Shown here in pieces: positions 1,240 to 46,187 of a stretch of 64,000 nucleotides of DNA. The notes under the pieces were generated by a model. It ran no database searches. It was not told the origin of the DNA and saw only the letters and a list, made by a program, of their open reading frames with translations. Numbering within the stretch: the first letter of the stretch is position 1; every line of letters starts with the position of its first letter. Made by a program: the position numbers and the translations under genes. The stretch covers positions 4,800,001-4,864,000 of the forward strand of contig OZ220741.1 of NCBI GenBank assembly GCA_965116885.1, read 5' to 3'. Source of the DNA: Candidatus Latescibacterota bacterium (GTDB taxonomy: Bacteria > Latescibacterota > UBA2968).

Positions 1240-3216
1240 TCACCAGTGATGCACCAGATGCCCTTGCCCAAAGAAAAACAACACATCCACGATAAAAATC
1301 AACCCAATACCCAGAACATAACCGAGCATCAGCCCCATAAACAAAGGCAGAGATTGGCGATAAAGTCCAATACCGCCAATTTTTAACAAAACGGATTTCA
1401 CCATCCACGCCACAAAAACCGTAAACACCTGCCGCTGCAAAATACCCGTAGTAAACACCGTCAACCCAATGGGACTCAACGGCCACCTCAAAAACCGATA
1501 GCGCAAAAAACTACACAAAACGGTGAGACCCGCGCCAATACCAAAAAACATCAGCCTATCCAGACTGATGCCAAAGGGATTTTGCAATTTCTTCACCACA
1601 TTGCTAAAAATCACCACATTCCCGGAATTAAACGTATAAACATTAAAATTGTACGCGCCGTACATATACCCCAGATACAGCGTGAACACCGCCGAAATAA
1701 CCATCGACACCACCAGGGCGCACATCGTTGTCCAGAATAGCGAGCGGGTCTTGAGCTTGAGCCTCGCGCCCATCTGCGCGATATGTGCCAGCGTAGAAGC
1801 ACCAAAAGTATTGCCCAGGCCAAACGTCGAATAAGACAGCGCCAGAGACGCGGCGCTATTGGTATCCATCTGCCGAATACCAATCGTATAAAACGTAAAG
1901 CTCTGCGGCGTAATGGGCATCCGCGCATAAGCCAAACCCGACTCAGCCACAAACCGCGTCACCCCCACCGTCATCAAAATCAGCGCAAAAAGAAAAACGC
2001 CAGACACGAGCGCGGACATACCCGAATGCCACAACCAGAAAAACAGAAACGCCGCCCCCACAATAATCCCCCACACCGCCGCCCGATAAGACAACAACTC
2101 ATCCGAATCATCCACATCATCATCGCCGCGCATCGCCTTGCGCCACACATCCCGCAAATGCGCACGCGCCATCCACATACTCAACGCCGTAAATACAAAA
2201 AAAGCCCCCATCGCCTGCCAGCCCAACGCAGCGCCACCGCGAGACCCCCAGATATCGGACGCCCCAATAGTATATCCCAAACGGTCAAAAACACCGGTTT
2301 GCACAATGCCCAGCGCGTAGAAAAACCACAAACTGAACAACACATCGAGATTGGTAAAAAAGGCGAACCCCAGCACAAAAAAATTCAATTTAATCGTAAC
2401 ACTCGGAAATCCGCGCCCAAGTGGCAAAGCCCATCTGTCCATCAACGGAATAGGTGGAAAAGTATGCCAAAAATAACCCACGATATTCCACACCACCACA
2501 ACCACGGGAATGGTCAGTCCAACCCAGAACAAGCGAGAATGCAGGAGCCTGTATTTTCCTGCTTCAATCTCCTCCAACATCGTCAGCGGTGCTTCAGCCA
2601 GGGGAAAAGGCAGGCGTTCTCGATCCACCCACTGCCGCCGCAACACAGCCATCAGTGCCACGCTCACCAGTGCCAGTGCAATGAGAAAAACACCCCACCA
2701 CACAAGCGGCGTCATCCACGCATCCCAGGGAATATCAACCCCTGGGGGCTTGCCCTCAAAAAAATACGTCATCTGATCGGCGTGATTGGGCGGTGCGGCC
2801 CATTTGGGCAATCCATCCAACAAATAATCGCCCCACTGATTCTCGGGCGAAGCGTAATAATACGGCGCGGCAATCCCCCCAATAAACAAACCCATAAAAT
2901 TCGCCGCAGGCACAGCCCCTGCAATCCAACCCATTGAAAAAACCACCACCATCTCACCTTGCGACAGCGCCCACTGCGGCTTTACCCGCGCCATCAGAAC
3001 ATTCAACGGCCACGCCAGCACCGTGAAAACCACCATAGTCGCCATGGGCAAATGGGCAAAAACCATACGCGACGAATGCACGATATAGGCCGAATAAGCG
3101 GGCAACAAATTCACCAGAAACGTTACCGCAATCCCCACGCAAAAAGCGCGTGTGGTCACGCTCAGATGTTTGCTCTCCGGGTGCAAATCCCCATCCAACG
3201 CTTTCAACTCGGCCAT
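1240..3216 (-). CDS. Polytopic inner-membrane protein, DUF6785/DUF6784-type (putative transporter), 658 aa
   Basis: Many hydrophobic helices; motifs LRRQWVDRERLPFPL and RYRFLRWPLSPIG; clear paralog at 44120-46105. Confidence 0.75.
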   Translation of the reverse strand: MAELKALDGDLHPESKHLSVTTRAFCVGIAVTFLVNLLPAYSAYIVHSSRMVFAHLPMATMVVFTVLAWPLNVLMARVKPQWALSQGEMVVVFSMGWIAGAVPAANFMGLFIGGIAAPYYYASPENQWGDYLLDGLPKWAAPPNHADQMTYFFEGKPPGVDIPWDAWMTPLVWWGVFLIALALVSVALMAVLRRQWVDRERLPFPLAEAPLTMLEEIEAGKYRLLHSRLFWVGLTIPVVVVVWNIVGYFWHTFPPIPLMDRWALPLGRGFPSVTIKLNFFVLGFAFFTNLDVLFSLWFFYALGIVQTGVFDRLGYTIGASDIWGSRGGAALGWQAMGAFFVFTALSMWMARAHLRDVWRKAMRGDDDVDDSDELLSYRAAVWGIIVGAAFLFFWLWHSGMSALVSGVFLFALILMTVGVTRFVAESGLAYARMPITPQSFTFYTIGIRQMDTNSAASLALSYSTFGLGNTFGASTLAHIAQMGARLKLKTRSLFWTTMCALVVSMVISAVFTLYLGYMYGAYNFNVYTFNSGNVVIFSNVVKKLQNPFGISLDRLMFFGIGAGLTVLCSFLRYRFLRWPLSPIGLTVFTTGILQRQVFTVFVAWMVKSVLLKIGGIGLYRQSLPLFMGLMLGYVLGIGLIFIVDVLFFFGQGHLVHHW

Positions 3217-3278
3217 CGCAATCTCTCAAAAACTCAGGGCAGGTCCTGCGCTACAATATCTTCCGTGCAATGTACCTC

Positions 3279-3319
3279 AAAAAGCAAGTGTGTGCAAGGC
3301 ATCCATCCCCTGCACACAC
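3279..3319 (-). terminator. Hairpin or intrinsic terminator between the PorV-like gene and the membrane protein gene
   Basis: Inverted repeat GTGTGTGCA..TGCACACAC (3288-3319) followed on the minus strand by TTGCTTTTT. Confidence 0.6.
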
Positions 3320-3365
3320 CGGTTGTGGTTCAGGATCTATCAGCGATCCACTCACAGACCGCTAT

Positions 3366-4328
3366 TTAAAACGACCCACTAACAGCCAGGCGCAACGGCG
3401 CATCGAAATACACACCGCCATCGCTATAAGACAGATCCACGCGGATATCGCGCCCGCCAAAATCGTACTTCAGGCCAGCGCCCAAACTGTAATCCTCCAC
3501 GTCGTAGTTGACCTTATATCCACCGCGCAATGCGAGCATATTGGAAATCCAAAGCTCACCCCCAAAATTCCACCGCTGACCGTAATCAGTAGCCATAATG
3601 GTCTCGGCCGCAAGCGTCAAATACGTCGGGTCGCCTTGCTCGCCATAGACCTCACCTGCCAGCCCAAAATTGAAATTGATCGGCGGTGAATACTGCTCGG
3701 TTTCCACAGTAACATCAGCACCCACATTGCGTGCGGCAGCGGCAATACGCAAACTGCGATAGCCCGTATATGCCGAAATGCCCAGGTCAAACTGAAATGT
3801 ACTCGTCGTCTTGAGCACCAGATCTTCCTGCACCCACCGCGCCTGCACGCCCCACGACACTTTATCGGTCATCTGACGCGCAAACATAAACCCAATGGCC
3901 GTATCGCCGCCCTGGATCATACGCCCGGTACCTGTGGCTTGAAAAATCGTCGTTTCCTCCACCTCTTCGGGCACAAAGCTCACAATTGAAACGCCAAACG
4001 TATTGCCGCCCCATTTGTAAGCCAACGCCCCCGAATACAATCCCGAATTGACCAGCCAGCGCGTGTAGGACAGCGCGTATTCACCGCCCGAAACAAATCC
4101 CAGCGCACCGGGATTGTAAAAAGACGCATCAATACCGCCGTTCATAGCGACAAAGGCTTCGCCCATAGCCACGGCACGGGGCGACGCACCGATTTTGAGA
4201 AATGCCAGCGACGACTGGCCCTTCACCGGCAAAATCGTACCGTATTCGCCAAAATCCGACTGTGCAAAGGCCGGTCCTGTCATCAGCCCGACCACCAGCA
4301 TCAGCACCAGTAATATTCGTTTGTTCAT
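3366..4328 (-). CDS. PorV/PorQ-family (UPF0164-like) outer-membrane beta-barrel
   Basis: Signal peptide; FLKIGASPRAVAMGEAFVA...YNPGAL signature; LALRGGY; C-terminal Phe. Confidence 0.85.
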   Translation of the reverse strand: MNKRILLVLMLVVGLMTGPAFAQSDFGEYGTILPVKGQSSLAFLKIGASPRAVAMGEAFVAMNGGIDASFYNPGALGFVSGGEYALSYTRWLVNSGLYSGALAYKWGGNTFGVSIVSFVPEEVEETTIFQATGTGRMIQGGDTAIGFMFARQMTDKVSWGVQARWVQEDLVLKTTSTFQFDLGISAYTGYRSLRIAAAARNVGADVTVETEQYSPPINFNFGLAGEVYGEQGDPTYLTLAAETIMATDYGQRWNFGGELWISNMLALRGGYKVNYDVEDYSLGAGLKYDFGGRDIRVDLSYSDGGVYFDAPLRLAVSGSF

Positions 4329-4338
4329 GTCAGGCTCC

Positions 4339-6714
4339 CTATCTCAAAATGTAAAACGTCCCCGTCACCGTTTGCCCCATACTTTCGGGCGTCAGCGATT
4401 CAACGACGTAAAAATAAATCCCGCTGGCCACATCAGGCGAAGTCACATTGCGTTCAATTTGGAACCACGATGCTTCGCCCGAATTGGCATCGTCGTGCAG
4501 GATTTCACCCACAATATCGCCCGCCACATTGAAAATCAGCACGCGGCTTTTGGGGGGCAATCCCAGAAAGCGGATCTTTTTTGAACTCTGGTAATTATAA
4601 CCCGATTCCGACAAACTAAACGGATTGGGCACCACGCGCACGCGCTTTTCCGGCCATGACGGCGCCAGACCCGGCTGAAACGGACTGAGATCCAGGTTCA
4701 CGCGCTGCTCGGGGGCAGAATATCCACCTTCGAGTCCAGCCTGTAAATGACCCTGCACTTCTTCGGGCAAATCGCCCATGCTCGACATGCCATTGCTCCA
4801 TGAACTGCGCGATTTGGCAAAAGCCCGCACATTGTAAAAGTATCGGAACCCGGCAACCGCCGTATTATCGCGCCACACGTATTGACCGCCCGAATAGTCC
4901 CAGGTAGATCCGGAGGTACCTGCAGTGACAGTACCTACGTCTTCCCATGGACCAAATTCCTGATAGGCAGATCGGAACACGCGATATCCCACCACATCGG
5001 CATCGCCAAAATCGGGGTTTACCGACGATTCAGCATCGTCGTTCCACGTCAATGTAATCTCGGCATCCTGATTCACCCCAGGCGAAAACTTCACATCGGG
5101 CGGATAATCGGGCAGATCGTACATATTGTCGTACGCAAATTGCGCGGCCTTCAAATGCGCCACAAGAGCGGCTTCGCCCTTGCTCAACCGCGCCAATCGT
5201 TCTTCTACGGGCAGAGGAATGTCTTTCAGACAAAATGTCTGCACATCCACTGCATAAGCCGACTGGCCTTCTCGGGATATCGCCTGCGCGCCTGTCCCGG
5301 CGACATAAGCCACCACGATCTTGGCCTTCTCGCCCACAGCCAGATTATACGGCCCAAAAGTGAGTGCATTGGCCATCGCATTGACGGTGGTTGGATTGGC
5401 ATCCGTTGTTCCCGAAAAAGTTTCGTAAATGCCCTGCTCTGAATCGCTCTGCAAATTCGGCAAATCCGTATTCAAACCCCAGAAATCGCGCGTTTCCCAC
5501 CACTTTGACGTCCTGGGTTGTTCGCCCACCGGATTGACGTATTTGCCCTGATCATTGGCATTGAACACATGCGACGGTCCACCATCGCGATAGGCCAATG
5601 GCGCAACGCCCACATACTGCGGCGATCTCATTTGCCCGTCAAACACGCCGCCCGGTAATCTCTTCGCATTGCCGTGTACGCTTTCAATATAAACGGGTTG
5701 TCCGGTGTCCTCTTCAGCGCGCTGGATACTGTCGCCATCCCACTGATAATTCATCTTCAAATCTATGTATTCAGCAGGTCCGTCGTAATTCGGCGCACCC
5801 GTATAGCGGTATTGATCGTCTTGTGGCTGATACGATCCGGGCATGCCAGATCCGATGCTGTTCCAATTGCCCTCGCCCGACATGCTTACCGTAAAGCCCT
5901 GAACAAATGAGAAATACGCCCCGGTCAGGTTATGTCCAGCACCGCCGTTCACATCTGCAACACCATCGCCATCGGAATCACCCGTGTTCTCAAATTCCAC
6001 TTCCAGAATAAAGAAATCGTCAAACCCCTGATAACTCCAGGCCATGGCTTTGCGCGTGATCGTAACACCGTGTTTGGTCGTCCACCTGCTAAAAACGATA
6101 TCTTCTGCGCGGTCGTCCTTATCGGCGTCCATGTACTGACCCCACCGATGGTTGAGGACCTCATAGGGCACACCAGTTCTCGGCGCGTCGGTTTGCAATG
6201 CTGCGCCGGGATACCAGTTGGGCATAATTGCTCCCGCACCCAATCCATGGGGTGGCACCTCGACCTGATATCCCCAGCTGGCTTCGAGACTGTTGGCAAT
6301 ATCGTAATACATCGGTGCGATATCCGCCGAAGGCGTCCACGGTCCCGAATACGATACCCCGTATTCGCCGCCGACATTGGTCAACACCCATATACCTTCC
6401 CCTCCCGACAAATTCTGTGCCTCATTTTTTTGTTCAGCCCAGCTAAAACCGTTCTTTTTGCCGAAATACTCGATATAGTCCGCACCCGCCATATTGAGCA
6501 TAAGGCCATTGCCCATGCCCGGATACGTCAAGCGGGGTGCGCCGCGAGAACTTCGGTCGTCCCAGACACCGCCCTGAGTTCCTTCATTGCGAAATCCGGT
6601 CCAGAGTTGCCCGCGGGTGAGTTGCCGCAGATTCTGCGTGTCCAGGGAATAGGCATTAAACGCCCACCCGACAACTATCAGGATCAGGACAGCAGCTTGA
6701 AATCTCCTGTTCAT
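4339..6714 (-). CDS. Secreted protein with Fn3-like domain and T9SS type A-like C-terminal domain
   Basis: Start MNRRFQ (GGAGG RBS), signal peptide; GYRVFRS...FRYFYNVRAF Fn3-like segment; CTD VRVVPNPF..IRFLGLP..IFNVAGDIV..ASGIYFYVVES..GTFYILR. Confidence 0.75.
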   Translation of the reverse strand: MNRRFQAAVLILIVVGWAFNAYSLDTQNLRQLTRGQLWTGFRNEGTQGGVWDDRSSRGAPRLTYPGMGNGLMLNMAGADYIEYFGKKNGFSWAEQKNEAQNLSGGEGIWVLTNVGGEYGVSYSGPWTPSADIAPMYYDIANSLEASWGYQVEVPPHGLGAGAIMPNWYPGAALQTDAPRTGVPYEVLNHRWGQYMDADKDDRAEDIVFSRWTTKHGVTITRKAMAWSYQGFDDFFILEVEFENTGDSDGDGVADVNGGAGHNLTGAYFSFVQGFTVSMSGEGNWNSIGSGMPGSYQPQDDQYRYTGAPNYDGPAEYIDLKMNYQWDGDSIQRAEEDTGQPVYIESVHGNAKRLPGGVFDGQMRSPQYVGVAPLAYRDGGPSHVFNANDQGKYVNPVGEQPRTSKWWETRDFWGLNTDLPNLQSDSEQGIYETFSGTTDANPTTVNAMANALTFGPYNLAVGEKAKIVVAYVAGTGAQAISREGQSAYAVDVQTFCLKDIPLPVEERLARLSKGEAALVAHLKAAQFAYDNMYDLPDYPPDVKFSPGVNQDAEITLTWNDDAESSVNPDFGDADVVGYRVFRSAYQEFGPWEDVGTVTAGTSGSTWDYSGGQYVWRDNTAVAGFRYFYNVRAFAKSRSSWSNGMSSMGDLPEEVQGHLQAGLEGGYSAPEQRVNLDLSPFQPGLAPSWPEKRVRVVPNPFSLSESGYNYQSSKKIRFLGLPPKSRVLIFNVAGDIVGEILHDDANSGEASWFQIERNVTSPDVASGIYFYVVESLTPESMGQTVTGTFYILR

Positions 6715-6731
6715 ATCACTATCCTCCAATT

Positions 6732-9700
6732 TTAAAACTGAATTTCCAGACCGATTTCCACTTCGCGCGGCTGATACCTGTAGCGCGTGGCTTCATTCGG
6801 ATCGCCATAAAGCAAATACTCAGTATCATCTGGCGGGGGCAACCGCAGCCCGTACTGTATATACGTGAAATCCGAATCTCGGCTCTCCGTACTCCTCTCA
6901 TTGAACAAATTGCTCACCTCCACAAATAGCGTGGGACGCAAATTGCCAATGGCTCGAAAATCTTTGGCCGCGTACAGATCCGTCTTCATCACCGTTGCTC
7001 CCGTGCGAAATTCGCGCGGGCCAATCGGGGGAACATACTCAAACGGCTCGCCGCTGAAAATGCGGTAGATCATGCTCACGCGCAGACCGCCGAATGGATT
7101 GATCGCACCCATTTTGGGACCATAAGCCATCGGCGTGGCATAATACAACTGAAGCGACAACTGATTCCTGCGTTGTCCACCGGTAGGCTCAGCAGAAAAA
7201 ACCTGCCCATTTGACGCTGTCCATATCCCATTATCATTGGTTTTAATAGGCGGCTGCCAGGGTCCTGCACCTGGCCCCTGTGACCCGGCCTGCTCGGTCC
7301 AAGACACGATATTTGCCTCGGCTCTGGCACTGATGTCAGCCACCTGTTCAGACGTGAGTGGCACGGGCCTTTCCGAACCATCGGATTGCACTTCCCAATC
7401 GGTCCAGTAGTGTCCGGCACTGATAAAATCGGCATCGGGAAGCACATACCAGTTCGCAGAGTGCTTGCCGTAGTGAATACCGCCCGGATCGCGCACCCAT
7501 TCGGCATTGTAGGACAAATTGAACTGGAAATTATTGCTAAACGTCTTTTTCAGCGACAATTCGAGACCGCGCGCTGTCTGCCAGTAGGTATTGCGTATGG
7601 CATTGACCTGAGCAGACTGGCCTTTGAGGGGATCTACCCAATAAGAAATATTGTTGCTGGCGTACAATCCCTCATCGCGCCGATAATGTGCCGTAATGCT
7701 CGCCGTATAATCGGCCACAAAATTCCAATCCACCCCCATTTCCATACTCGTCGTACGCTGGGGCTTCATGCCATCGGATGGCTGCCGCGCCGTGGTATGC
7801 ACTTCCATAGCATTCCACTTTTCGGTCTCATCAATCATGCCGTTGCCATTGAGGTCGTTGTCCGGTGCCTCGCTCGAGAACTGCCTGCGATGGGTTTCGA
7901 GAAGCACGGGGAAGACATTCGACCGACCAATAAAATAGTGTGCTGCCAGACGGTCTGTAATCGGATGCGACAGACCCACGCGCGGACTCAATGCCGTCAT
8001 CGTTGGTGTTGAACTATCGAGGTGATCCATCTCATACCGCGCCCGCGTAAACGTGCTGTACATCGGCGATTTGCCCAGCGCCTCTCCCATTGAGCCATTG
8101 CGACCATAATTGTAATAATCCCAGCGCAAACCCAGATTGGCGACCAGGCCTCCGTATTCTATCTTATCCTGCACATACAGGTTCAGCGTCCACGGCTTCA
8201 CATTTTTGCCCAGTTCAAAACCATCGGCCACAAACTCGAGAAAGCGGCTCTTGGTATTGTCAAAATCTTCTCGCGTGCGGTGATACGACCGCTGCGTGAG
8301 CACCAATCCCGTCTGTATCAAATGCGACCGGTTGACCTGGCTCACAAAATCGTACTTGATGCCGTATTTTATATCTTCCTCTTCGGTGTATTCGCGCAAC
8401 AGCGTGGGCAAATTGAAAAAGCCCGCCTTATCTTTGCGCACGGCTTCAGTGGCATCCGGCACATCGAACGCATCGCGATCGTATTTGTTGTAGAAAAATC
8501 TCAGATCGTAATACGTATTTTCGCCCAATGTATGCGTCAGCGTCAACACCTGGAGTTGCCGGGACAATGTATAAGTGCCCGAAGCTGAAAAATCCTCGGG
8601 AAAGAAAATATTTTGTGCATTATTGCGCGTCGATCCCTGAAACCGATCCGACCGCTGATACATCCCCAGGGCTTTAACCTTGATATTTGCACTGGGCCGA
8701 TACGTCAACGTTCCCTGCATGCGCGGCGGATCGTCCGACACCTGTTCAGCCGCCGGGAACCTGGCCGGGCTGCGGGCATAACTCACACTGGCAAAATACG
8801 AAAGATCGGGTGTGAGCGGGCCGCCCAATGTACCTTCTAAGCGGTGCCCGCGCTTGTCCGTATAATCAACGCGCTCGTGCGCCATGCGCTCGACATCGTC
8901 AGATGTCCCCAGGACGCGGTCCGGTCCCGGATCCATATATGTTTCATTCACCCAATCGGGATTGTCCCACTGCACATTGTCTTCAAATCTGGGGCTTTCA
9001 TAAACGTCTCTGCCCCAGTGTTTTTTCCCCGAAGGCGTGAACTTATACTCCACCCGCCCAGAGAAATTGCCCCGGCCTTCTTTTGTCACCACACTCACAA
9101 TGCCCGCACCCGCATTGCCAAATTCCGCATTCATCCCGCCAGTGAGCACACTCAATTCCTGAATAGCCGTAGTATTCACACCCGTGAGCAAGCTCCGATC
9201 GACCTCAATCCCATCGATATAATAGCCCACCTGCGTCCCCGTTTGCGCCCGCGTTGTACTTCCGCGAATGCGATTGGTGCCATCCAGTGCCATACCCGGT
9301 TGCAATGCAATCAACTGCGATGTCGATCTCACCTGCGGCACAGCCTGAATATCTGCCGAAGAAACCACGTATTTGCTCGTGGTTTTATCTGGCTCCACAG
9401 GCGGACGCTCCGCAACAACAATCAACTCGGCCAATTCGAGACTGGCTTCTTTCAGTGCAAAATTTACTGTAGATGTATAATCCACAATCACCTGTACCGC
9501 TTCTTTCTTCTCTGTGCCATAGCCCACCATCGTCGCCGTAAGGGTGTACATGCCGGGATCTACAGCCAGAATTAAATAGCGGCCTTCGGCATCGGTAGTA
9601 GCTCCTTTGCGGGTCCCTTCGAGCGCCACATTCGCGCCCGGCAAGGACTCACCCGTAGCGGCATCTGTGATGACACCCGTGATTTTACCCGCTGTTGTCG

Positions 9701-9758
9701 CCATGGCCGATGTATCCATCAGCAACAACAAAATAAATCCCAATATTAACCGCTTCAT
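6732..9758 (-). CDS. TonB-dependent receptor with N-terminal carboxypeptidase-regulatory-like domain
   Basis: Start MKRLILG after GAGGAG; GKITGVITD..LPGANV; plug IQELSVLTGGMNAEFGNAGAGIVSVVTKEG; YVQDKIEY..NLGLRWDY; SPRVGLSHPI; C-terminal Phe. Confidence 0.92.
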   Translation of the reverse strand: MKRLILGFILLLLMDTSAMATTAGKITGVITDAATGESLPGANVALEGTRKGATTDAEGRYLILAVDPGMYTLTATMVGYGTEKKEAVQVIVDYTSTVNFALKEASLELAELIVVAERPPVEPDKTTSKYVVSSADIQAVPQVRSTSQLIALQPGMALDGTNRIRGSTTRAQTGTQVGYYIDGIEVDRSLLTGVNTTAIQELSVLTGGMNAEFGNAGAGIVSVVTKEGRGNFSGRVEYKFTPSGKKHWGRDVYESPRFEDNVQWDNPDWVNETYMDPGPDRVLGTSDDVERMAHERVDYTDKRGHRLEGTLGGPLTPDLSYFASVSYARSPARFPAAEQVSDDPPRMQGTLTYRPSANIKVKALGMYQRSDRFQGSTRNNAQNIFFPEDFSASGTYTLSRQLQVLTLTHTLGENTYYDLRFFYNKYDRDAFDVPDATEAVRKDKAGFFNLPTLLREYTEEEDIKYGIKYDFVSQVNRSHLIQTGLVLTQRSYHRTREDFDNTKSRFLEFVADGFELGKNVKPWTLNLYVQDKIEYGGLVANLGLRWDYYNYGRNGSMGEALGKSPMYSTFTRARYEMDHLDSSTPTMTALSPRVGLSHPITDRLAAHYFIGRSNVFPVLLETHRRQFSSEAPDNDLNGNGMIDETEKWNAMEVHTTARQPSDGMKPQRTTSMEMGVDWNFVADYTASITAHYRRDEGLYASNNISYWVDPLKGQSAQVNAIRNTYWQTARGLELSLKKTFSNNFQFNLSYNAEWVRDPGGIHYGKHSANWYVLPDADFISAGHYWTDWEVQSDGSERPVPLTSEQVADISARAEANIVSWTEQAGSQGPGAGPWQPPIKTNDNGIWTASNGQVFSAEPTGGQRRNQLSLQLYYATPMAYGPKMGAINPFGGLRVSMIYRIFSGEPFEYVPPIGPREFRTGATVMKTDLYAAKDFRAIGNLRPTLFVEVSNLFNERSTESRDSDFTYIQYGLRLPPPDDTEYLLYGDPNEATRYRYQPREVEIGLEIQF

Positions 9759-9778
9759 AATCCTCTCCTCTTTGAGAT

Positions 9779-10471
9779 CTACCAGTACAATTTGAATGCC
9801 GTCCTGAAATCGAACATCGCAATGGGAAATACCCCGGGCAGATTCCACGCCTCCATCGGCCGCAAATCACCTAAAATCATGTGATAGCGCCCGCGGATAT
9901 CCAGCCCGAATCGCCCCTGCACCACCGTCATGCCCAACCCAAAATTCGCCCCCAGAGCCGTATGTTCATCCTCTCGATCATCCAGCATCAGATCCGCATT
10001 CAAAGGCTCCTCTTTTTGTCCCGGATAAATCAGACCAGTAATCCGATCCTGATAATCGTAAAACCCCGCACCCACAGCGACATAAGGCAAAAGCTGCAAA
10101 TCGCTGCTGGACTTGCGGGTATTGAGATATGCCAGGGCATTGATCAAAAAGCTGTTGAGATTAAATCGAGAATTTGCATCTGGACTCAAATATTTTTGCT
10201 TATCAATGGGCCACGTAAACGCCAGACCTTCGATCTTTCCGTCATCCATTGTCAGGTGATGGTATTCAAACTCCATCGTAGCGCGCGAACTGACCTGATA
10301 ATCCAGCACCGCACCATATACCTGAGAAGCCGAATACCGATCGTGAAACCCCAGCACGGGCACACTGCGGTTAAAAAACACGCCAGCGCCGTATTGAGCT
10401 TCCTGGGCAGAAACCGGCACTGCGACCAACAATGCCAGTAGCCACACCTTCAACATCAAATATCTATTCAT
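9779..10471 (-). CDS. Small outer-membrane beta-barrel protein (OmpA/OMP_b-brl-like)
   Basis: Start MNRYLM after AAAGGAGG; signal peptide; PYVAVGAG, LGANFGLG, LDIRGRYH strands; aromatic C-terminus; paralog at 35486. Confidence 0.75.
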   Translation of the reverse strand: MNRYLMLKVWLLALLVAVPVSAQEAQYGAGVFFNRSVPVLGFHDRYSASQVYGAVLDYQVSSRATMEFEYHHLTMDDGKIEGLAFTWPIDKQKYLSPDANSRFNLNSFLINALAYLNTRKSSSDLQLLPYVAVGAGFYDYQDRITGLIYPGQKEEPLNADLMLDDREDEHTALGANFGLGMTVVQGRFGLDIRGRYHMILGDLRPMEAWNLPGVFPIAMFDFRTAFKLYW

Positions 10472-12712: not shown

Positions 12713-12715
12713 GGG

Positions 12716-13534: not shown

Positions 13535-13567
13535 TGCGGATCCTTCCTTTTAGCCTTTGCAGATGCC

Positions 13568-35200: not shown

Positions 35201-35231
35201 TAACAACCGCAGAATATAATCATTTAGAAAG

Positions 35232-35272
35232 AAAAGAACGGCAACGTTTCAGCAGTTTGCCGTTCTTTTTTT
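35232..35272. terminator. Intrinsic terminator, potentially bidirectional
   Basis: AAAAGAACGGCAA..TTGCCGTTCTTTTTTT. Confidence 0.85.
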
Positions 35273-35307
35273 AGTGATCACAATATACCGGACAGAATTC
35301 ATTTTAC

Positions 35308-35336
35308 TTGCATTCTCAAATCAAGTGCATTAATAT
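35308..35336 (+). promoter_or_regulatory. Candidate sigma70 promoter of receptor operon 2
   Basis: TTGCAT-17-TAATAT with an ACTTG..CAAGT inverted repeat over it, in an AT-rich tract. Confidence 0.4.
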
Positions 35337-35403
35337 ACCAAAGTAATATATTTTATGTCTAAAATAAGTTTTAAATATTATAAAAAACTAAAATTAATAT
35401 CGG

Positions 35404-35453
35404 TAAGGAGGTCAAATGATCTGATGCTATTGCGTCTTCGGAAATCTATTTGA
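35404..35453 (+). promoter_or_regulatory. Leader with perfect SD, Met-Ile-stop minigene (35416-35424) and overlapping 9-codon uORF (35424-35453)
   Basis: TAAGGAGGT-CAA-ATG ATC TGA; TGATG overlap starts MLLRLRKSI*. Confidence 0.5.
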
Positions 35454-35485
35454 CACAACAATATCCATAAGCAAAGGAGGCTCTG

Positions 35486-36184
35486 TTGAAAAAGATATTC
35501 TCGATTTTATGCATTGTCGTGCTGTTGCCTGCGCATTCGACAACAGCACGAGAAGGTGCTTTTGGCGCTGGCGGCTTTTTCGACCTCTACATTCCCGTCT
35601 TCAACTTTAAAGATATGTACGATAGTGGTACAAAATTTGGAGGCACAGCGCATTATATTTATCACAAGCGCAAGATGGTCGAAGTAGAATTTCACCATGC
35701 CCGCTTTAACAATGGTAGCCTTGAAACACGCACCTTCAGTTTCAGCGACGGTAAAGAGTACACCAGCCCACAAGCCGAAGCCAACATGACCATTAACAGC
35801 ATCAATGCCAACTGGCTATTTGCACTGCGGGAACAGGGGTTTGGCCAGGGCACAACGCTCTATCTCACATTTGGCGCGGGCCTTCACGATTATTCCAGCA
35901 AAGTCAGCGGTCTGATCTTTGCCGGTCAAACACCTTCAGGTGCTGGCGCGCCCCCCGACCCAACCATCCTCCTGGAACCCATCAACGACACGCGCACAGC
36001 CTTTAGTGCCAGCTTTGGCGGCGGGGTTCAAATCGGTATGGGGGACAAAGCCGCGTTAGATTTGCGTGCACGCTATAATATTGTGATGGGAGAGTTGCGC
36101 CCCTTCCTTGTTTGGGGCATTGAAAAAACATATCCCTTCAACCTCATTGATATCGGTGCAGGTATCAAATTCAACTTAAATTAA
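35486..36184 (+). CDS. Small outer-membrane beta-barrel protein
   Basis: TTG after AAAGGAGG; signal peptide; LYLTFGAG, LDLRARYNIVMGELRP (cf. LDIRGRYHMILGDLRP in 9779-10471). Confidence 0.75.
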   Translation: MKKIFSILCIVVLLPAHSTTAREGAFGAGGFFDLYIPVFNFKDMYDSGTKFGGTAHYIYHKRKMVEVEFHHARFNNGSLETRTFSFSDGKEYTSPQAEANMTINSINANWLFALREQGFGQGTTLYLTFGAGLHDYSSKVSGLIFAGQTPSGAGAPPDPTILLEPINDTRTAFSASFGGGVQIGMGDKAALDLRARYNIVMGELRPFLVWGIEKTYPFNLIDIGAGIKFNLN

Positions 36185-36196
36185 GGAGAGCCGCGA

Positions 36197-39100
36197 ATGA
36201 AACGAATCGTTATGCTTTTCATACTTCTGTGTTTTGCCTCTCACCTCCAGGCAGGCACCACGGGTAAAATTGCTGGTATCATCAAAGACGACCGGGGCAA
36301 TCCGCTTCCCGGCGCCAATGTAATCGTAGAAGGCACGCGACTCGGCGCCGTGGCAGATGCCGATGGTAGCTATTTTATCATCAATATCCTGCCGGGAAGA
36401 TACACACTCACGGCCTCGCTTATCGGATATACCAATCAGACCCAGAGCGATGTATCGGTCAAAACGGATTTCACCACGCCTCTCAACTTTGAACTCAAAG
36501 AAACCACCGTCGAATTGGCCGAACTCACAGTCGTGGCCGAACGCCCACCCGTGGAAAAAGACAAAACCACGAGCAAATACATCATGGGTGGTGATACGAT
36601 TGATCGCCTATCTACAGCGGCAAACACCTCAGAACTCATGAGCCTTCAGGCCGGCGTCTCTCTCGACAACAACGAACCCGCCATTCGCGGCAGCTATCAG
36701 GGCAACCGGGGCAACTCGGAAACACTCGTCTATGTGGATGGCGTCGTCATGGATGCGGGCACTGCCCGGGGCGATGTTCAATTTGTCGGGGTCAACAGCC
36801 ACGCCGTGCAAGAAATCACCGTCATCACTGGCGGGATGGAAGCCGAATACGGCAATGCCACATCTGGCACCATTCACATCATCACCCGAGAAGGCGGCAA
36901 AAATTTTCACGGCAAAGGCGGCTTCACCTATATTCCACCGGGCAAAAAACACTGGGGTGGCAATGTCTATGACAGCCCCATCCACAAAGGCAGAATGAAA
37001 TGGGGCGATGCGACATGGGAAAATGAAACATACACAGATCCCGGTCCAGATCGTCAGATGGGAACGGGCGACGACATCACCCGCCTGGCACACGAGCGCA
37101 CGGACTACACCGGCATTCACGGTTATGAAGTCGATGGGTCTCTCTCGGGTCCATTGTTGGGAAATGCTTCCTTTTTTGTTACGGCACAGCACGAGGGACA
37201 AGCCTCGCATTTTCCCTCTCCCACCAAACGCGGCATCTTCCACCAGGCCGTCTCGACATCTCCACAAACCGCCCGCTGGATCGAATCGCCCTACAACATC
37301 AAAGGCACCTACAAACTGGCCTGGGATGTGCAGTCCAACATAAAAGTTAAAGTCGGCGGGGTCTATGCGCGCCACGAAGCCTATCAGGTCGGCGAGGGGG
37401 AAAGCTGGGTACAGGGCGTCAAGCGCACCGTTGGTCGGGAACTCCAGGGCATCGACATCTTTCTTCCCGCAAACGAAGCCGGTGCAGGCATCGCCAACGT
37501 CAAACACGACCTGGCGTACATATCCCTCACACATACCCTGAGCAACAAAACCTTTTACGAAGCCCGGCTATCTTATTACCGCGACGCCACAGACACCACC
37601 AATGTGCCGGGTGTCACCAGCCAATTTGGCGGCGGCATTACAGAACCACTCAGAAAAGATCAGGACGGGGTATTCACCATTGGCCCCAGACGGGTCTCCA
37701 TCTGGATCAACGACCACCGCGCCCGCCTCAACTTCAAACTCGATTATTCCAGCCAGATCAACAAGAACCACTTTATCAAAACGGGCATTGATCTGACGCG
37801 ACACACCTACTGGTGGAACCAGATCAACTGGCCGCAGGCGGGCAAATCGCGCTATCAACTCGCGGGCGTGCCCTACGAAATGGGCGAACCCATTCACCCC
37901 ATCCAATCCGCCTTTTACCTCCAGGACAAAATGGAATTTGAAGGCATCATCGTCAACCTGGGCATCCGCTACGACAGACACGACCACAACGGCGATTTTT
38001 ACTCCCCACTTGCCAACAATGCCTGGGGCGGAGCACCCATGACCAACTCGTGGTCCCGGCAACGCAAATTTATGCCGCGCACGACTGTATCCACCAAATC
38101 GGCCTGGAGTCCTCGTCTGGGCGTTTCACATCCCATTACAGCCAATGCCATCATTCGATTTTCCTACGGCATCTTTCACCAGATGCCCGGGTTCTGGCAC
38201 CTCTATTCCTACGAATGGCGAGGCGTTGCACCCCCGGAAGACTTCAACAACAATGGCCAAATCGACGATACCGAATGGCTCAATAAAAACAACCAGCGAG
38301 CCACCACGGGCAATCCCCACCTGGATTACAAACGCTCCACCAATTTCGAGGTGGGCACAGACTGGAACTTCTATCAAGACTTTGTCCTGAGCTTCACCAC
38401 TTATCAGCAAAGCGTTGACGGTCAGGTTCGATTCGGCAATGCCCTGTGGCGAGATCCCAGCCGCAAAAGTCAGGTGGGGCGCAACACACCGCTGGGTTAT
38501 GTTTTTACAGACAATCGCGGATTTGAAATGAGCCTGCGAAAGGACTTCAGCCAGAACTTCTCCTTCCAGGTCGCGTACAACCACCAGTGGCAGTCGGGAG
38601 GCAACGCGGGAATCAACCGGATTATTTACTTTCCCAACTCGCAATTTGTCGCATCAGATCTCTATTTCATCCAGCACACCAAAGACACCAACGGCGATGG
38701 CTCAGTAAATGCCAGCGACGACGGCTCAGAAGCAAAAGTGCCGCTCACACCGCAGCAAATTCAGGACATCGGCGCCGAAGCAGACCGCTATATCCAGACC
38801 ATCCGAGAGGGTACCAACCCCGACTGGAATCCGCTGACCGACAGCGAAATTCAGGAAGTGGAAAATCTTCCAGGTGTCTTCTTTTTCACCCGCAACACCA
38901 CCTCTGATCGAAGTGCGGGACGCGGTGGTGCCGCAGAAACCGCTGGTTTTGGTGACCGGCGCGGCACTATGAAAATTGCATTTACGTATGAAACGCCAAT
39001 GCATTACGGTCCAGCCCTCGGCGGTTTCCGGCTCAATGTGATCAACACCCTGAAAACGGGACGTCGAATCAACATTCCGCATCCCACACAGGGCAATGTC

Positions 39101-39418
39101 GAGCGATTTGGTCCTATGGAAACCAAGACCCACCTGTCTTTGGAAAAACGCTTCCGCACAGGTCGAACCGAAGCCACCCTGTTTATGAACGTGTACAACT
39201 TCTTCAATCAGCGCGACCCGGCCACCGAATATTTCTGGCGCGGTCCCTGGTTTGATCGACACAGACAGGGACCACAGGCCGAACTCTGGTATCTCTACGG
39301 CATGGACATGCCCAAACCCACGGACAAAAATTATATCAACTTCGGCGATACCAAAGAATACCACCGCTGGGCTGGTCGCCCCCGAGAGATCAGCGTAGGT
39401 CTCCAGCTCGGATTTTAA
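36197..39418 (+). CDS. TonB-dependent receptor
   Basis: GTTGKIAG..LPGANV; VQEITVITGGMEAEYGNATSGTIHIITREG; YLQDKMEF; SPRLGVSHPI; C-terminal Phe. Confidence 0.92.
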   Translation: MKRIVMLFILLCFASHLQAGTTGKIAGIIKDDRGNPLPGANVIVEGTRLGAVADADGSYFIINILPGRYTLTASLIGYTNQTQSDVSVKTDFTTPLNFELKETTVELAELTVVAERPPVEKDKTTSKYIMGGDTIDRLSTAANTSELMSLQAGVSLDNNEPAIRGSYQGNRGNSETLVYVDGVVMDAGTARGDVQFVGVNSHAVQEITVITGGMEAEYGNATSGTIHIITREGGKNFHGKGGFTYIPPGKKHWGGNVYDSPIHKGRMKWGDATWENETYTDPGPDRQMGTGDDITRLAHERTDYTGIHGYEVDGSLSGPLLGNASFFVTAQHEGQASHFPSPTKRGIFHQAVSTSPQTARWIESPYNIKGTYKLAWDVQSNIKVKVGGVYARHEAYQVGEGESWVQGVKRTVGRELQGIDIFLPANEAGAGIANVKHDLAYISLTHTLSNKTFYEARLSYYRDATDTTNVPGVTSQFGGGITEPLRKDQDGVFTIGPRRVSIWINDHRARLNFKLDYSSQINKNHFIKTGIDLTRHTYWWNQINWPQAGKSRYQLAGVPYEMGEPIHPIQSAFYLQDKMEFEGIIVNLGIRYDRHDHNGDFYSPLANNAWGGAPMTNSWSRQRKFMPRTTVSTKSAWSPRLGVSHPITANAIIRFSYGIFHQMPGFWHLYSYEWRGVAPPEDFNNNGQIDDTEWLNKNNQRATTGNPHLDYKRSTNFEVGTDWNFYQDFVLSFTTYQQSVDGQVRFGNALWRDPSRKSQVGRNTPLGYVFTDNRGFEMSLRKDFSQNFSFQVAYNHQWQSGGNAGINRIIYFPNSQFVASDLYFIQHTKDTNGDGSVNASDDGSEAKVPLTPQQIQDIGAEADRYIQTIREGTNPDWNPLTDSEIQEVENLPGVFFFTRNTTSDRSAGRGGAAETAGFGDRRGTMKIAFTYETPMHYGPALGGFRLNVINTLKTGRRINIPHPTQGNVERFGPMETKTHLSLEKRFRTGRTEATLFMNVYNFFNQRDPATEYFWRGPWFDRHRQGPQAELWYLYGMDMPKPTDKNYINFGDTKEYHRWAGRPREISVGLQLGF

Positions 39419-39441
39419 TTTCGTTATCAAGGAGCAATAAC

Positions 39442-41751
39442 ATGTATCCATTAAAACACGTCGGATGGATGGGTGTTCTATGTGTGCTGGTATTTGCATC
39501 CGAAATCTGTGCCCAGCAACCCGAACTTCAACGCCACCTGACCCGAGGCAAGCTCTGGGCCACCTTTCGCAATACCGGCACCCAGGGCCTGCGCGACGAC
39601 AGTCGCCTGGGCGCAGATGCCGGCTTGATGTATCCCGGCTGGGGCATTGGCGAACGCGACTTCAGGGAATACTGGATCATTGGACAGGACGCCGACCACC
39701 GATATCACACCAGCCAGGGTGAGGGTTTTTGGGTTTTTACCAGAGAAGGAGGGTCATACAATGTATCGACCTCCAACCCGCGCTACAATACCGACGACAT
39801 CTTTGAAATGATCTACGATGCCGCTTCGGGACCAGAGCGCGATTTGGGCATTGAAACCCGGTCGTTCCTCACGGGCAATACCACGGCTAATTACTGGCCC
39901 GGAGCACCTGCACTGGTGGCCGACGAACCCATCGAAATCCACAATTACGATTACGGACGCTATATTCCCAATGACAATGAGGCCGAAGAAATCATCATCT
40001 CCAAATGGACGACAGAACGCGGCCTCACCATTACCCGCAAAGCCAGAGCGTGGAGCTATCCGGACTACGACGACTTTATTATTCTGGAAGTCATCATCGA
40101 AAACACCGGAGATAACAACGGAGACGGCGTACCCGATGCAGAGCTGCCTGTTGATCACCAGGACGTTTACTTTGCCTTTGTGAACAACCTGGCTCCATCG
40201 TGGGCCGGGCACCGCTGGCAAAACCAAACCGTACCGTGGGCGTATTCAGATCCGATCATCCTGGACGACTGGTACAAATACAGCGAAGCGTCCAATTTCG
40301 ATGGCCTGCCCGCACTTCGGGGGAAAAAAATCTCTTATGTCTATGACAGCGATCTGCTCTCTTCTGCCGGAGACGACACGGGGCAGCCTTTCGATAGGAA
40401 CAACGCCCAGTCAGCCTATATCAACCGGGGCCAACTCAGCCACGGCGAACTACTGGCTTTCCAGTACATTGGCCTGGCACCCCTCGATTACGACCCTACC
40501 GACGGGTTCACCAACGACACCGAGACCTACGTGGCTCCCAAAACAATGGATCAGCCCGCCTTCGCCAACTGGTGGGAGATCTTCGGACGCTTCGATTGGA
40601 ACACGCCAGATATTACCAACTTGAATAGCGACGAAAATCTCTACAATGAATTTATTGGTTTGGGTAGAGTTCCAGCCGATCAACCCAACCCCGATCATAT
40701 CAGCCGCGTAACCTTCGCACACACTTATGGGCCTTACGATCTGGCCCCCGGTGAAAAAGCCAAAGTCGTGGTCGCCTGGGTCGCCGGATCGGGTGCCGAA
40801 TTTGCCGGTCCCGGCGGCAGTCCCATGGATGTTTACGAATGGGCGCGCCAGGGCAATCAAAGCCAGGTCGCCGACGGCGAACGGGCGATGGCACAGCATC
40901 TGGAACGCGCGCAATTTGCCTACGACAACAATTACGACCTGCCCGACGCGCCTCCCGATGTCGCCGTATTTGTAGATAGCGACGAAAACGGGAACAACGC
41001 CATCACATGGTCTGACCGGGCTGAAAAGTCCCCCGATCCGGATTATACGGGCGATGAAGCCCTGGATGTGCAGGGCTATCGGGTCTATCGCACCCAGAAC
41101 AACCACCTGGGCCCCTGGGAACTCGTGGCTGATATCCCCAAAGGAACTACCCCATCCAACGCGGAATACGCACCCAACACGCCCTGGACATCGCCCACGA
41201 TCTCCTACGCCGATGGGGGAACCTACACCTATCGAGACGTGGAATCCGTACCTGGTTTCAGGTACTGGTATTCGGTGCGCACCTACGATTCCGGACACAG
41301 CGACTGGAACGGCACAGGCCGAGCCATCCCTTCTCTGGAATCCGGACACAGCGCACCCGAACAGCGCATGAATGTTTCGAGAAGTCCCATTGTGATTGCA
41401 ACCGCTGAAAAAGACGCACTGGCCGAACAGGTACGCGTAGTCCCCAATCCTTTTCGAGACGATCCGGGAGACGCCGACCACAGGTATCCACCGGCCAGCA
41501 ACAATATTCGCTTTGTCAATATTCCCCGAAAGGCCAAAATCTCCATCTTTTCCATCTCCGGAGATCTAATCGCCGTCATCAACCACCCGCAACGCGCCAC
41601 CGATCCCGACAGGGGCGAAGCCACCTGGGATCAGCGCACGCGCACATTTTCCGGGCGCGTCGCCGCCGGACGCTACTACTACGTGGTAGAATCTCTGGTT
41701 GCTGGCGAAACGGGCAAAAAGCAAACCGGGATGTTTATGATCATCAAATAG
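39442..41751 (+). CDS. Secreted protein with Fn3-like domain and T9SS type A-like CTD (paralog of 4339-6714)
   Basis: LTRGKLWATFRNTGTQG, ITRKARAWSYPDYDDFIILE, YGPYDLAPGEKAKVVVA, VRVVPNPF..IRFVNIP..AAGRYYYVVES..GMFMIIK. Confidence 0.78.
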   Translation: MYPLKHVGWMGVLCVLVFASEICAQQPELQRHLTRGKLWATFRNTGTQGLRDDSRLGADAGLMYPGWGIGERDFREYWIIGQDADHRYHTSQGEGFWVFTREGGSYNVSTSNPRYNTDDIFEMIYDAASGPERDLGIETRSFLTGNTTANYWPGAPALVADEPIEIHNYDYGRYIPNDNEAEEIIISKWTTERGLTITRKARAWSYPDYDDFIILEVIIENTGDNNGDGVPDAELPVDHQDVYFAFVNNLAPSWAGHRWQNQTVPWAYSDPIILDDWYKYSEASNFDGLPALRGKKISYVYDSDLLSSAGDDTGQPFDRNNAQSAYINRGQLSHGELLAFQYIGLAPLDYDPTDGFTNDTETYVAPKTMDQPAFANWWEIFGRFDWNTPDITNLNSDENLYNEFIGLGRVPADQPNPDHISRVTFAHTYGPYDLAPGEKAKVVVAWVAGSGAEFAGPGGSPMDVYEWARQGNQSQVADGERAMAQHLERAQFAYDNNYDLPDAPPDVAVFVDSDENGNNAITWSDRAEKSPDPDYTGDEALDVQGYRVYRTQNNHLGPWELVADIPKGTTPSNAEYAPNTPWTSPTISYADGGTYTYRDVESVPGFRYWYSVRTYDSGHSDWNGTGRAIPSLESGHSAPEQRMNVSRSPIVIATAEKDALAEQVRVVPNPFRDDPGDADHRYPPASNNIRFVNIPRKAKISIFSISGDLIAVINHPQRATDPDRGEATWDQRTRTFSGRVAAGRYYYVVESLVAGETGKKQTGMFMIIK

Positions 41752-41767
41752 TGCAAAGGAGATACAC

Positions 41768-42709
41768 GTGAAACGCTTACAAACAACGCTCATCCTGGTC
41801 TTCACTGCCTTTGTCCTATCGGCAACAGGCGCAGAAGCCGGGTTAAAAAAACTCGGTAATGCCGGGTTCACCTTCCTCAAAGTCTCTCAAAGCGCGCGCG
41901 CAGTTGCTATGGGCGATGCTTACACCGCAGTGGGCACGGGTGTCGATGCCATGTTCTGGAATCCAGCGGGCATCACGCAAATCAATCGCGCCGCTTTTAG
42001 CCTGGGATACAACAACTGGATGGTCAACTCCCAATTTTATTCGGGTGCATTTGCCTACAATTTGGGAACACAGGCCATAGGCATCACGGTCTTGTCTTTC
42101 ACACCCGATGAATTTGAAGAAACCACCATTTTTCAGCCCAATGGCACGGGCAATATCATTAAAGACAGCGACTTTGCTGTTGGCCTGACCTATGCCATCA
42201 AATTCACCGACAGATTGTCATTTGGCGCCCAGGGCAGATATATTCGAGAGACGCTCTATACCGATGTCAACAGCGGCCTGGATATCTCGATAGGCACGCT
42301 CTTTTACACCGGATTCCGCTCTTTGCGACTGGCCATGACACTAAAGAATTTCGGACAGGATATCGTCATTATCGATGACACAGCCTTCCGCCCCCTCATC
42401 TACAGCATCGCGGCTTCAATGGAACTCTACGGCAATCTGGGCGATCCAGTTTCACTTACCGTAGCTGCGGAGAATGCCTTTTTTGTGGATTTCGAAGGCC
42501 GCATTCACACAGGCGCCGAACTCTGGTTGCACAATATTCTCGCACTACGCGGCGGCTGGAAATTCAACAACGACACCGAGAGTTTTGCCCTGGGATTTGG
42601 CCTCAAATACGCCCTCAATGAGCGTCCCTTTACCCTGGACTTTGCGTATAGCGATATGGGAGAGCTATTGGACCCCACCTATCGGATAACCATTGGCGGT
42701 TCCTTCTAA
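41768..42709 (+). CDS. PorV/PorQ-family outer-membrane beta-barrel
   Basis: FLKVSQSARAVAMGDA..FWNPAG; LALRGG; C-terminal GSF. Confidence 0.85.
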   Translation: MKRLQTTLILVFTAFVLSATGAEAGLKKLGNAGFTFLKVSQSARAVAMGDAYTAVGTGVDAMFWNPAGITQINRAAFSLGYNNWMVNSQFYSGAFAYNLGTQAIGITVLSFTPDEFEETTIFQPNGTGNIIKDSDFAVGLTYAIKFTDRLSFGAQGRYIRETLYTDVNSGLDISIGTLFYTGFRSLRLAMTLKNFGQDIVIIDDTAFRPLIYSIAASMELYGNLGDPVSLTVAAENAFFVDFEGRIHTGAELWLHNILALRGGWKFNNDTESFALGFGLKYALNERPFTLDFAYSDMGELLDPTYRITIGGSF

Positions 42710-42723
42710 GAAGCGGTCGCGAT

Positions 42724-44103: not shown

Positions 44104-44119
44104 GCAATCGATCAAACCT

Positions 44120-46105: not shown

Positions 46106-46135
46106 ACAAACGCGCGAAAGACAGTGCCAAATATT

Positions 46136-46165
46136 AAAAAGCCGACGTAAAAACATCGGCTTTTC
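46136..46165. terminator. Bidirectional terminator between convergent operons
   Basis: AAAAAGCCGA..TCGGCTTTT. Confidence 0.75.
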
Positions 46166-46187
46166 TTGAAAATCTGCCCTATCTACC

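Follow-up and report, generated by a model that had tools for sequence, protein, structure and literature searches.

The DNA analyzed here is a 64,000-nucleotide stretch (the window) of a Candidatus Latescibacterota genome, positions 4,800,001 to 4,864,000 of contig OZ220741.1. At one end it carries a unit of genes (copy 1) encoding a TonB-dependent receptor (TBDR), a secreted partner protein and a barrel of the PorV/PorQ family, accompanied by a small outer-membrane barrel, a DUF6785 inner-membrane protein and a sodium:solute symporter (SSS). The host genome assembly is a single contig and 98% complete. From the linkage, folds and family assignments reported below we infer how the partner may be exported and anchored, what it may contact and what it may bind, and we consider it probable that it is a barrel-anchored, non-catalytic capture protein that feeds a glycan-type substrate to the TBDR. 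A preliminary description of the window had proposed a SusD-less, co-oriented six-gene set. The open reading frame (ORF) list and family scans bore this out: all six genes lie on the minus strand, no SusD is encoded in the unit, and the single SusD_RagB match in the genome is located elsewhere. The features of copy 1 are as follows (lengths in amino acids, aa):

9779..10471, minus strand: small outer-membrane beta-barrel (PF13505, OmpA-like), 230 aa, with a signal peptide; PF13505 31 bits, cut-off 28.7
6732..9758, minus strand: TBDR, 1008 aa; CarboxypepD_reg and Plug domains
4339..6714, minus strand: partner protein, 791 aa, ATG start behind GGAGG; no family over cut-off
3366..4328, minus strand: PorV/PorQ-family barrel, 320 aa; NF033709 148 bits, cut-off 90
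3287..3320, minus strand: 13-pair hairpin with a T-rich tail, between the PorV-like gene and the DUF6785 gene; a consensus match alone
1240..3216, minus strand: DUF6785+DUF6784 inner-membrane protein, 658 aa; 375 and 63 bits
1..1218, minus strand: SSS gene, 5' part in the window; 586 aa in the genome, PF00474 130 bits
10792..11619, minus strand: xylose-isomerase-like TIM barrel (PF01261), upstream of the unit; family match

The gaps between the six genes measure, in order, 20, 17, 10, 149 and 21 bases, and in the genome the SSS gene is followed by a Zn-dehydrogenase gene and then a PhyH dioxygenase gene. Promoter-like sites were as numerous as expected by chance (11 seen vs. 11.2). The same gene order had been said to recur at 35486-46105. 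Diverged paralogs do occupy that region, while the order differs slightly, a GWxTD gene being inserted and no SSS gene following:

35486..46105, plus strand: copy 2 as a whole, 31-41% identical to copy 1, gene by gene
35486-36184, plus strand: copy 2 small barrel
36197-39418, plus strand: copy 2 TBDR
39442-41751, plus strand: copy 2 partner
41768-42709, plus strand: copy 2 PorV-family barrel
42724-44103, plus strand: copy 2 GWxTD-domain protein, between PorV and DUF6785
44051-46105, plus strand: copy 2 DUF6785

RNA contigs from four sponge libraries of two studies, labelled as metagenomes, span the four outer-membrane genes of both copies. In copy 1, the barrel-TBDR, TBDR-partner and PorV-DUF6785 junctions are each spanned by a single contig, which in the last case runs across the hairpin. 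Most of the SSS gene and of both DUF6785 genes was thinly covered or bare, from which we drew no inference, as contigs cannot rank genes by level. These data are compatible with an expressed operon; they demonstrate neither one transcript nor expression levels, and DNA in the libraries is a possible source.

Paralogous and related units

The host genome contains 12 TBDR-partner-PorV operons. A PorV-family gene lies directly downstream of all 13 partner-family genes and a TBDR gene directly upstream of 12 of them, a pairing far above chance, and eight of the modules include a small barrel. Distances of the TBDR barrel, partner body, tail and PorV-like barrel were correlated across the 12 paralogous modules (Spearman 0.63-0.79, p<=0.001). 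Genes neighboring the modules encode isomerase, SSS, dehydrogenase, sulfatases, cellulase-like and GH38 domains, ROK and SIS proteins and major facilitator superfamily (MFS) carriers. An additional TBDR-1045 aa-PorV operon in the genome has a longer relative. The thirteenth partner gene is a near-identical duplicate of one in another partner-PorV pair. The duplicated pair (L005:5088-8798, L011:11568-15281), a recent duplication, lacks its own receptor; a different TBDR-1045 aa-PorV operon lies ~1.8 kb before it, and a sigma-54 activator gene occupies the interval.

Among related loci, of which we retained 80 out of 133 that were anchored on a PorV gene and which are mostly kin, the partner gene was directly upstream of the PorV-like gene at 80/80, the TBDR gene was in place at 77/77 testable loci and the small barrel at 76/77. 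DUF6785 was the next gene at 24/77 and lay within ~10 kb at 49/73. The PF01261 isomerase was kept at 15 of the 17 copy-1 ortholog loci. We rejected the SSS gene as a core member: it was found at 15/73 loci, 14 of them copy-1 orthologs, and its earlier inclusion in the unit thus holds for copy 1 specifically.

At 50% identity and E up to 1e-30, the partner family falls into 908 clusters, with named members in KSB1, Marinimicrobia, Handelsmanbacteria, Rhodothermales and metagenome-assembled genomes of Bacteroidota. We found it in 57 of 121 Latescibacterota genomes, scoring nine candidates per genome, and Marinimicrobia-phylum genomes had it in 56 of 61 cases. Among the 30 best loci of the latter, all 29 testable ones have a TBDR gene directly upstream of the partner, and 21 of the 30 have a PorV-like gene <=1.5 kb downstream. 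The gene order is conserved in related loci and, in part, in Marinimicrobia. We extended 16 Marinimicrobia regions, nine of them picked because PorV was missing; together these held 29 partner, 25 TBDR and 15 PorV-like genes, commonly arranged as TBDR-partner-X-PorV-TBDR-partner. Two long regions, L150 and L151, contain ROK, MFS and cellulase-like genes and no PorV-like gene. The barrel had been called operon-specific, which fits its 1:1 occurrence in the host genome and not the 29 partners to 15 PorV-like genes, and the two regions with none, in Marinimicrobia. An unnamed gene of 220-340 aa, with no Pfam match at 1e-7, often stands between the Marinimicrobia partner and the PorV-like gene (e.g., L152:9120-10130, L156:8188-8841 and L163:7712-8482).

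Plasmid pRMAR01 of the cultured species Rhodothermus marinus (L099:6215-15889) encodes a TBDR, a 1132-aa hypothetical protein with a matching tail and a PorV/PorQ protein. Genes for a peptidoglycan-recognition-family protein and a serine hydrolase follow, and perhaps this triad serves cell-wall fragments. The triad also occurs at metagenome locus L168; a metagenome scan with a Rhodothermales-type homolog returned its own locus only. Full-text literature searches, judged from listings and with most subscription papers outside their coverage, found neither the operon nor DUF6785 described.

The receptor, the two barrels and the partner protein

The TBDR consists of a signal peptide, a SusC-type N-terminal extension, a TonB-box-like stretch, a plug and a barrel with a terminal Phe; F, W or Y is terminal in 40 of 43 receptors. 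It scored over the cut-off with PF07715 (30 bits), as did paralog L008 with PF00593, and its N-terminal part gave profile matches to solved TBDRs. The SusC/RagA model TIGR04056 failed, at 97 and 74 bits against a cut-off of 368 and over the N-terminal part only. An ExVVxA consensus that resembles a TonB box precedes the plug.

All 12 module barrels tested passed NF033709 (148 and 164 bits vs. 90), placing the barrel that had been described as PorV-like in the PorV/PorQ family. That barrel did not reach the equivalog models for PorV and PorQ, NF033710 and NF033711 (50 vs. 250 and 59 vs. 220 bits), and with the PorP family model TIGR03519 no module barrel exceeded 19 bits, far below its cut-off. 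The barrel's profile gave a full-length match to solved PorV (E 8e-36) and weak ones to TodX/FadL (E 3e-5 to 3e-3); a ~60-residue insertion present in solved PorV is missing. The small barrel keeps long loops and conserved aromatic, Pro and Gly residues at ~30% identity and has no informative relative in the PDB. Its distances do not follow those of TBDR, partner or PorV (8 modules, p 0.07-0.63). On a quick tree of 43 barrels, all eight small-barrel modules and two Marinimicrobia loci with a small barrel fall within one clade of 23 rows with support of 99, and the small barrel is likely a marker and accessory subunit of this one module clade.

The partner was modeled from 98 sequences with high confidence (predicted local distance difference test score, pLDDT, 91.6; predicted template modeling score 0.93). 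In the numbering of the 796-aa ORF, the model comprises a beta-supersandwich domain with linker helices (~28-535), an FN3 domain (~545-640) and a tail (~695-796). No Pfam or NCBIfam family and no PDB sequence matched the N-domain, and its Atlas clusters are unnamed. By structure, the supersandwich best matched the N-domain of glucodextranase (Z 18.8, root-mean-square deviation 2.9, 235 residues), followed by the N-terminal domains of glucoamylase and GH94 phosphorylases; mutarotases scored Z 12-13.5. The aligned target ranges of the top matches end at about residue 300-390, before the catalytic barrels. We rejected the partner as a GH15, GH65 or GH94 enzyme: the (alpha/alpha)6 catalytic barrel is absent, and two linker helices lead into FN3 and the C-terminal domain (CTD).

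Residue conservation, read over 149-150 partner-family sequences, places invariant columns in FN3 and the tail and none in the N-domain, a pattern in keeping with a variable binding surface on a fixed anchor. The partner might instead be a barrel-anchored surface enzyme (a lyase, epimerase or hydrolase whose active site would lie in the supersandwich) in a SusG-like role, supplying fragments to the receptor. Stand-alone supersandwich enzymes do occur among the structural matches (galactose mutarotases, Z 13.5; a GH174 fucanase, Z 13.8), and several acidic or polar residues of the N-domain are fairly conserved (D237 0.83, D393 0.83, E243 0.73 and N248 0.91), with several Asp and Glu at 70-83%, which leaves some room for catalysis. 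Against an enzyme, the N-domain has no invariant residue other than Pro or Gly, its sole polar residue reaching 90% is N248 and it has no conserved His; the best matches are themselves non-catalytic N-domains, and near one-to-one pairing with a receptor better suits a cognate subunit. We think an anchored enzyme unlikely and prefer a non-catalytic capture role.

The partner's signal peptide is of the non-lipoprotein type, and with a lipobox-like string in merely 2 of 149 family members the claim that it is non-lipidated stands. In the model, the tail forms seven strands (residues 698-794), as does the 7-stranded beta-sandwich of type A CTDs in type IX secretion systems (T9SS). The partner-family profile matched the CTD of PorZ (5m11 669-758, E 7e-4), and the tail aligned by hhalign with a bona fide type A CTD of the host genome (85.6%, E 5.5e-6). 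A PNP motif is present in 147 of 150 tails, and the tail is always at the extreme C-terminus. As to type B, PF13585 gave 17 bits against 27, and TIGR04131 had no match. The label of T9SS CTD thus has profile and fold on its side, while neither curated T9SS cut-off is passed.

DUF6785 and the mobility of the cassette

DUF6785 was modeled at pLDDT 89.8, and its sole structural match was barley Yellow Stripe 1 (YS1), with a Foldseek E-value of 1.4e-7 and TM-scores of 0.61/0.67. The two superimpose at Z 23.1 and a root-mean-square deviation of 4.0 over 554 residues; the next match reached Z 4.8. Since YS1 is its only structural match, DUF6785 is, by its predicted structure, a protein of oligopeptide transporter (OPT) fold, and the earlier view of it as a membrane carrier agrees with this secondary-transporter fold. 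It shares the fold of the OPT family (PF03169; YS1, PDB 7wsr/7wst) over its whole length; identity to it is 9-12%, and none of the 38 paralogs examined gave a PF03169 match at E up to 1. A sequence search of the PDB gave no match, and an OPT hint in the Atlas, scoring <0.9, is a lead at most.

Within 10 kb downstream of nine of the 14 operon PorV genes there is a same-strand DUF6785 gene, where 0.55 would be expected (0/2000 shuffles). Of the genome's 40 DUF6785 copies, 10 lie within 12 kb of a module. The proposal that DUF6785 is a fixed member of the unit did not survive wider sampling: it was found in 0/61 Marinimicrobia-phylum genomes, 56 of which have the partner family, and three Latescibacterota genomes with no partner-family match have 13-42 DUF6785 matches. 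Together with its separation from the cassette in some genomes, this led us to reject DUF6785 as an obligate member. Its distances do not track those of TBDR, partner or PorV (9 modules, 0.04-0.37, not significant). The 40 paralogs carrying DUF6785/6784 (e.g., L130-L149) are 27-44% identical, and many adjoin genes for sulfatases, PhyH dioxygenases, Gfo/Idh/MocA oxidoreductases and tetratricopeptide repeat (TPR) or GWxTD proteins.

In genome comparisons the cassette behaves as one block when acquired, lost or relocated. DNA of genomes G010 and G001 matches copy 1 over the five-gene unit, with the DUF6785 stop and the small-barrel start as the limits of the match; SSS is unmatched there, and the dehydrogenase and PhyH matches are located elsewhere. 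G045 lacks the four outer-membrane genes, and its isomerase gene lies 740 bases from DUF6785. In G068 and G079 the copy-2 flanks are joined and the six-gene block is elsewhere in the chromosome; its end coincides with the DUF6785 stop or lies no more than 30 bases from it. An RNA joint that skips copy 2 (35200 to 46188) was considered as a deletion and rejected, as G068 and G079 carry the cassette elsewhere. From these comparisons, DUF6785 moves with the cassette in the host genus yet is separable from it.

Other parts of the window hold further genes. Next to copy 1, positions 11597-13534 contain aminotransferase and WelO5-like halogenase/dioxygenase genes; G+C content is 0.61 over 12001-14000 vs. 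~0.52, and this stretch is possibly a recent insertion. GWxTD proteins are also encoded at 48503-51625, and BLAST found ~25 in the genome, recurrently adjoining modules and DUF6785 genes. At 51667-57361 there are dockerin/EF-hand-like motifs fused to thioredoxin and to leucine-rich repeats, and a HEAT-repeat protein; such repeat proteins are typical of sponge symbionts. The genes at 57697-63999 encode WG-repeat proteins, a BlaI-type repressor together with a BlaR1 M56-TonB_C fusion, and a protein in which TonB_C occurs three times.

Type IX secretion, proposed mechanism and significance

The check for SprA, called for in the preliminary description, was positive. The host genome encodes a full-length SprA of 2081 aa (L017:9099-15344; G000:C1:4451098-4457343) that scored 634 bits with TIGR04189 against a cut-off of 200, and SprA is present in 118 of 121 Latescibacterota genomes. 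There are 12 type A CTD matches over the cut-off. One more PorV candidate, separate and better, stands next to a type A protein and scored 161 bits, which is below the equivalog cut-off. At its locus (L004:2710-11265), this candidate general PorV adjoins a TolB-like propeller protein and an inactivated M6-like metalloprotease that carries a type A CTD. A PorU-like protein of 1909 aa with a type A CTD (L166/L167; G000:C1:4893645-4898603) reached 261 bits vs. a cut-off of 420. The genome also has four ExbB/MotA-family matches and TonB_C proteins.

We propose the following route. Signal peptides are present on all four envelope proteins, and the partner carries no lipobox. The folded partner would leave through the SprA translocon by virtue of its T9SS-like tail. 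By analogy with PorP/SprF and with PorQ-PorZ, the co-encoded barrel would collect it and retain it on the surface with the tail uncleaved. The FN3 spacer may position the supersandwich over the receptor, where substrate would be bound and not cut, and TonB/ExbBD, as is usual for the receptor's family, would open the plug. In Latescibacterota, the OPT-fold DUF6785 recruited to most copies may move the product across the inner membrane; in other lineages MFS or SSS carriers would take this step. Three papers describe CTD proteins with their own FadL-family barrel, which takes them over from SprA and retains them at the surface, the CTD uncleaved (PMC9143113, PMC12618676 and PMC10202324). The shuttle PorV had been cited as precedent; a barrel carrier remains the model, and two cases are nearer to it than that general shuttle, namely PorP/SprF for type B CTDs and the PorQ-PorZ pair.

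Several observations count against parts of this route. The strict TonB-box pattern occurs in just 18 of the 43 receptors. Known substrates of the OPT family are peptides and chelates, not sugars, and the title of 7wst has the solved OPT-fold protein carrying a metal chelate. None of the 13 partner paralogs passes the TIGR04183 or PF18962 cut-offs (best 16 bits vs. 23). In some Marinimicrobia regions PorV-like genes are common to several partners or absent. Within the eight small-barrel modules the TBDR-partner distance correlation was 0.31 (p 0.21), and because no significant correlation was found inside these modules, the overall co-divergence signal mostly reflects two old clades. The PorU-like protein could cleave the tails. 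At the position of the Lys near the C-terminus typical of type A CTDs (PMC10994853), the partner has Thr (position -6: Lys 77, Thr 49 of 150). As to the motor, the host genome gave no GldM or GldN match in a search that did not include GldL and in which no control genome was positive, and GldK matches were below the cut-off only, as FGE-sulfatase-like domains. GldM was over the cut-off in 0/61 genomes of the phylum, again with no signal from a positive control. These results suggest a type IX translocon working without the known motor. PMC10994853 concludes that pulling carrier-substrate complexes off SprA requires energy, and the missing motor is for this reason the main unexplained point; part of PMC12635249 ties extraction from SprA to a GldK track.

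One answer would be that the receptor itself is the energy link for export, TonB pulling the barrel-partner complex out of SprA in place of GldLM. SprA without detectable GldKMN speaks for this, as does the homology of the GldLM and ExbBD motors described in a passage of PMC10202324. Yet for the ~12 type A proteins and the general PorV no receptor gene accompanies the PorV gene, family f3 has SprA in 45/45 and the partner family in 1/45, and TBDR-partner pairs stand without a PorV-like gene among sugar genes in L150 and L151, so that we regard this idea as extremely unlikely. The same missing motor, the tail's scores under the curated cut-offs and the weak TodX/FadL matches would suit a periplasmic partner that is not a T9SS substrate, with a generic Ig-like tail and a FadL-type channel beside it. 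The barrel is ~30 orders of magnitude nearer PorV than FadL proteins, though, the tail is always at the extreme C-terminus with PNP in 147/150, and SprA is near-universal in the phylum; a periplasmic location is in our view very unlikely. It is also conceivable that the barrel is an export carrier only and that the partner is released as a free scavenger or adhesin with transient, haemophore-like receptor contact. Several Marinimicrobia regions have a single PorV-like gene for two or three partners, a PorU-like protein is encoded in the genome, and a passage of PMC10994853 suggests that the affinity of CTDs for PorV is lowered after exit from the translocon. A private barrel would be unnecessary for release where a general PorV candidate and ~12 canonical type A proteins exist, and strict 1:1 co-encoding in the genome fits the stoichiometric type B carrier logic outlined in part of PMC12618676. 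We judge release distinctly unlikely and favor retention of the partner on its barrel.

The proposed unit resembles SusC/SusD (RagA/RagB) in having a TBDR with a CarboxypepD-like N-terminal extension followed by a cognate secreted partner, in its many diverged copies per genome and in its catabolic neighbors. In SusC/SusD systems a cognate surface partner is encoded directly after each receptor, and SusD has a helical TPR-type fold. Unlike SusC/SusD, the receptor here scores 97 against 368 bits, and the partner is a non-lipoprotein with supersandwich, FN3 and CTD and no SusD Pfam match. The neisserial TbpA/TbpB system with Slam (type XI secretion) combines a TBDR, a surface co-receptor lipoprotein and a dedicated barrel; our unit likewise has a TBDR, a surface partner and a dedicated barrel, whereas its partner is a non-lipoprotein with a T9SS-like tail and its barrel is of the PorV family. 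Like type B CTD proteins with PorP/SprF (SprB-SprF and PG1035-PorP), for which passages of PMC9143113 and PMC12618676 propose anchorage, the partner has its own FadL-family barrel encoded directly downstream; that barrel is, however, of the PorV/PorQ family, the tail is ~100 aa and type A-like, and the known type B cases are not coupled to a TBDR. With the PorZ-PorQ and PorU-PorV attachment complex, as described in part of PMC10202324, it shares a type A-like CTD on a PorV-family barrel, and the tail's best profile matches are to PorZ. Those proteins are single-copy machinery for attaching anionic lipopolysaccharide, whereas here 12-13 paralogous cassettes each stand beside a receptor and score below the PorQ and PorZ equivalogs. 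The unit would thus work as SusC/SusD does yet fails membership; its carrier logic would be that of PorP/SprF and PorQ, applied with another barrel and another subtype of tail.

More tentatively, FCB (Fibrobacteres-Chlorobi-Bacteroidetes) phyla outside Bacteroidia may use a SprA pathway without GldKLMN to build a second, independently invented SusCD-like machine, in which private PorV-like barrels clamp supersandwich-FN3-CTD lids; one clade would add a small barrel, and in Latescibacterota OPT-fold permeases would complete the machine, which would travel as a cassette. A passage of PMC12618676 calls T9SS exclusive to Bacteroidota; our reading would have type IX secretion help to assemble importers in phyla that recent papers describe as lacking the system, and raises the question of how SprA releases its cargo where no GldKLMN motor is found. 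The OPT-fold assignment of DUF6785/6784 gives a function class to 40 host genes. Marinimicrobia, Latescibacterota, KSB1, Rhodothermales and their kin are abundant degraders in oceans, sediments and sponges, and because these phyla are mostly without SusD, predictors of polysaccharide utilization loci keyed to SusC/SusD would miss these uptake loci. The triad of TBDR, partner and PorV-like barrel would serve as their marker, and the diverged partner domains would report substrate range.

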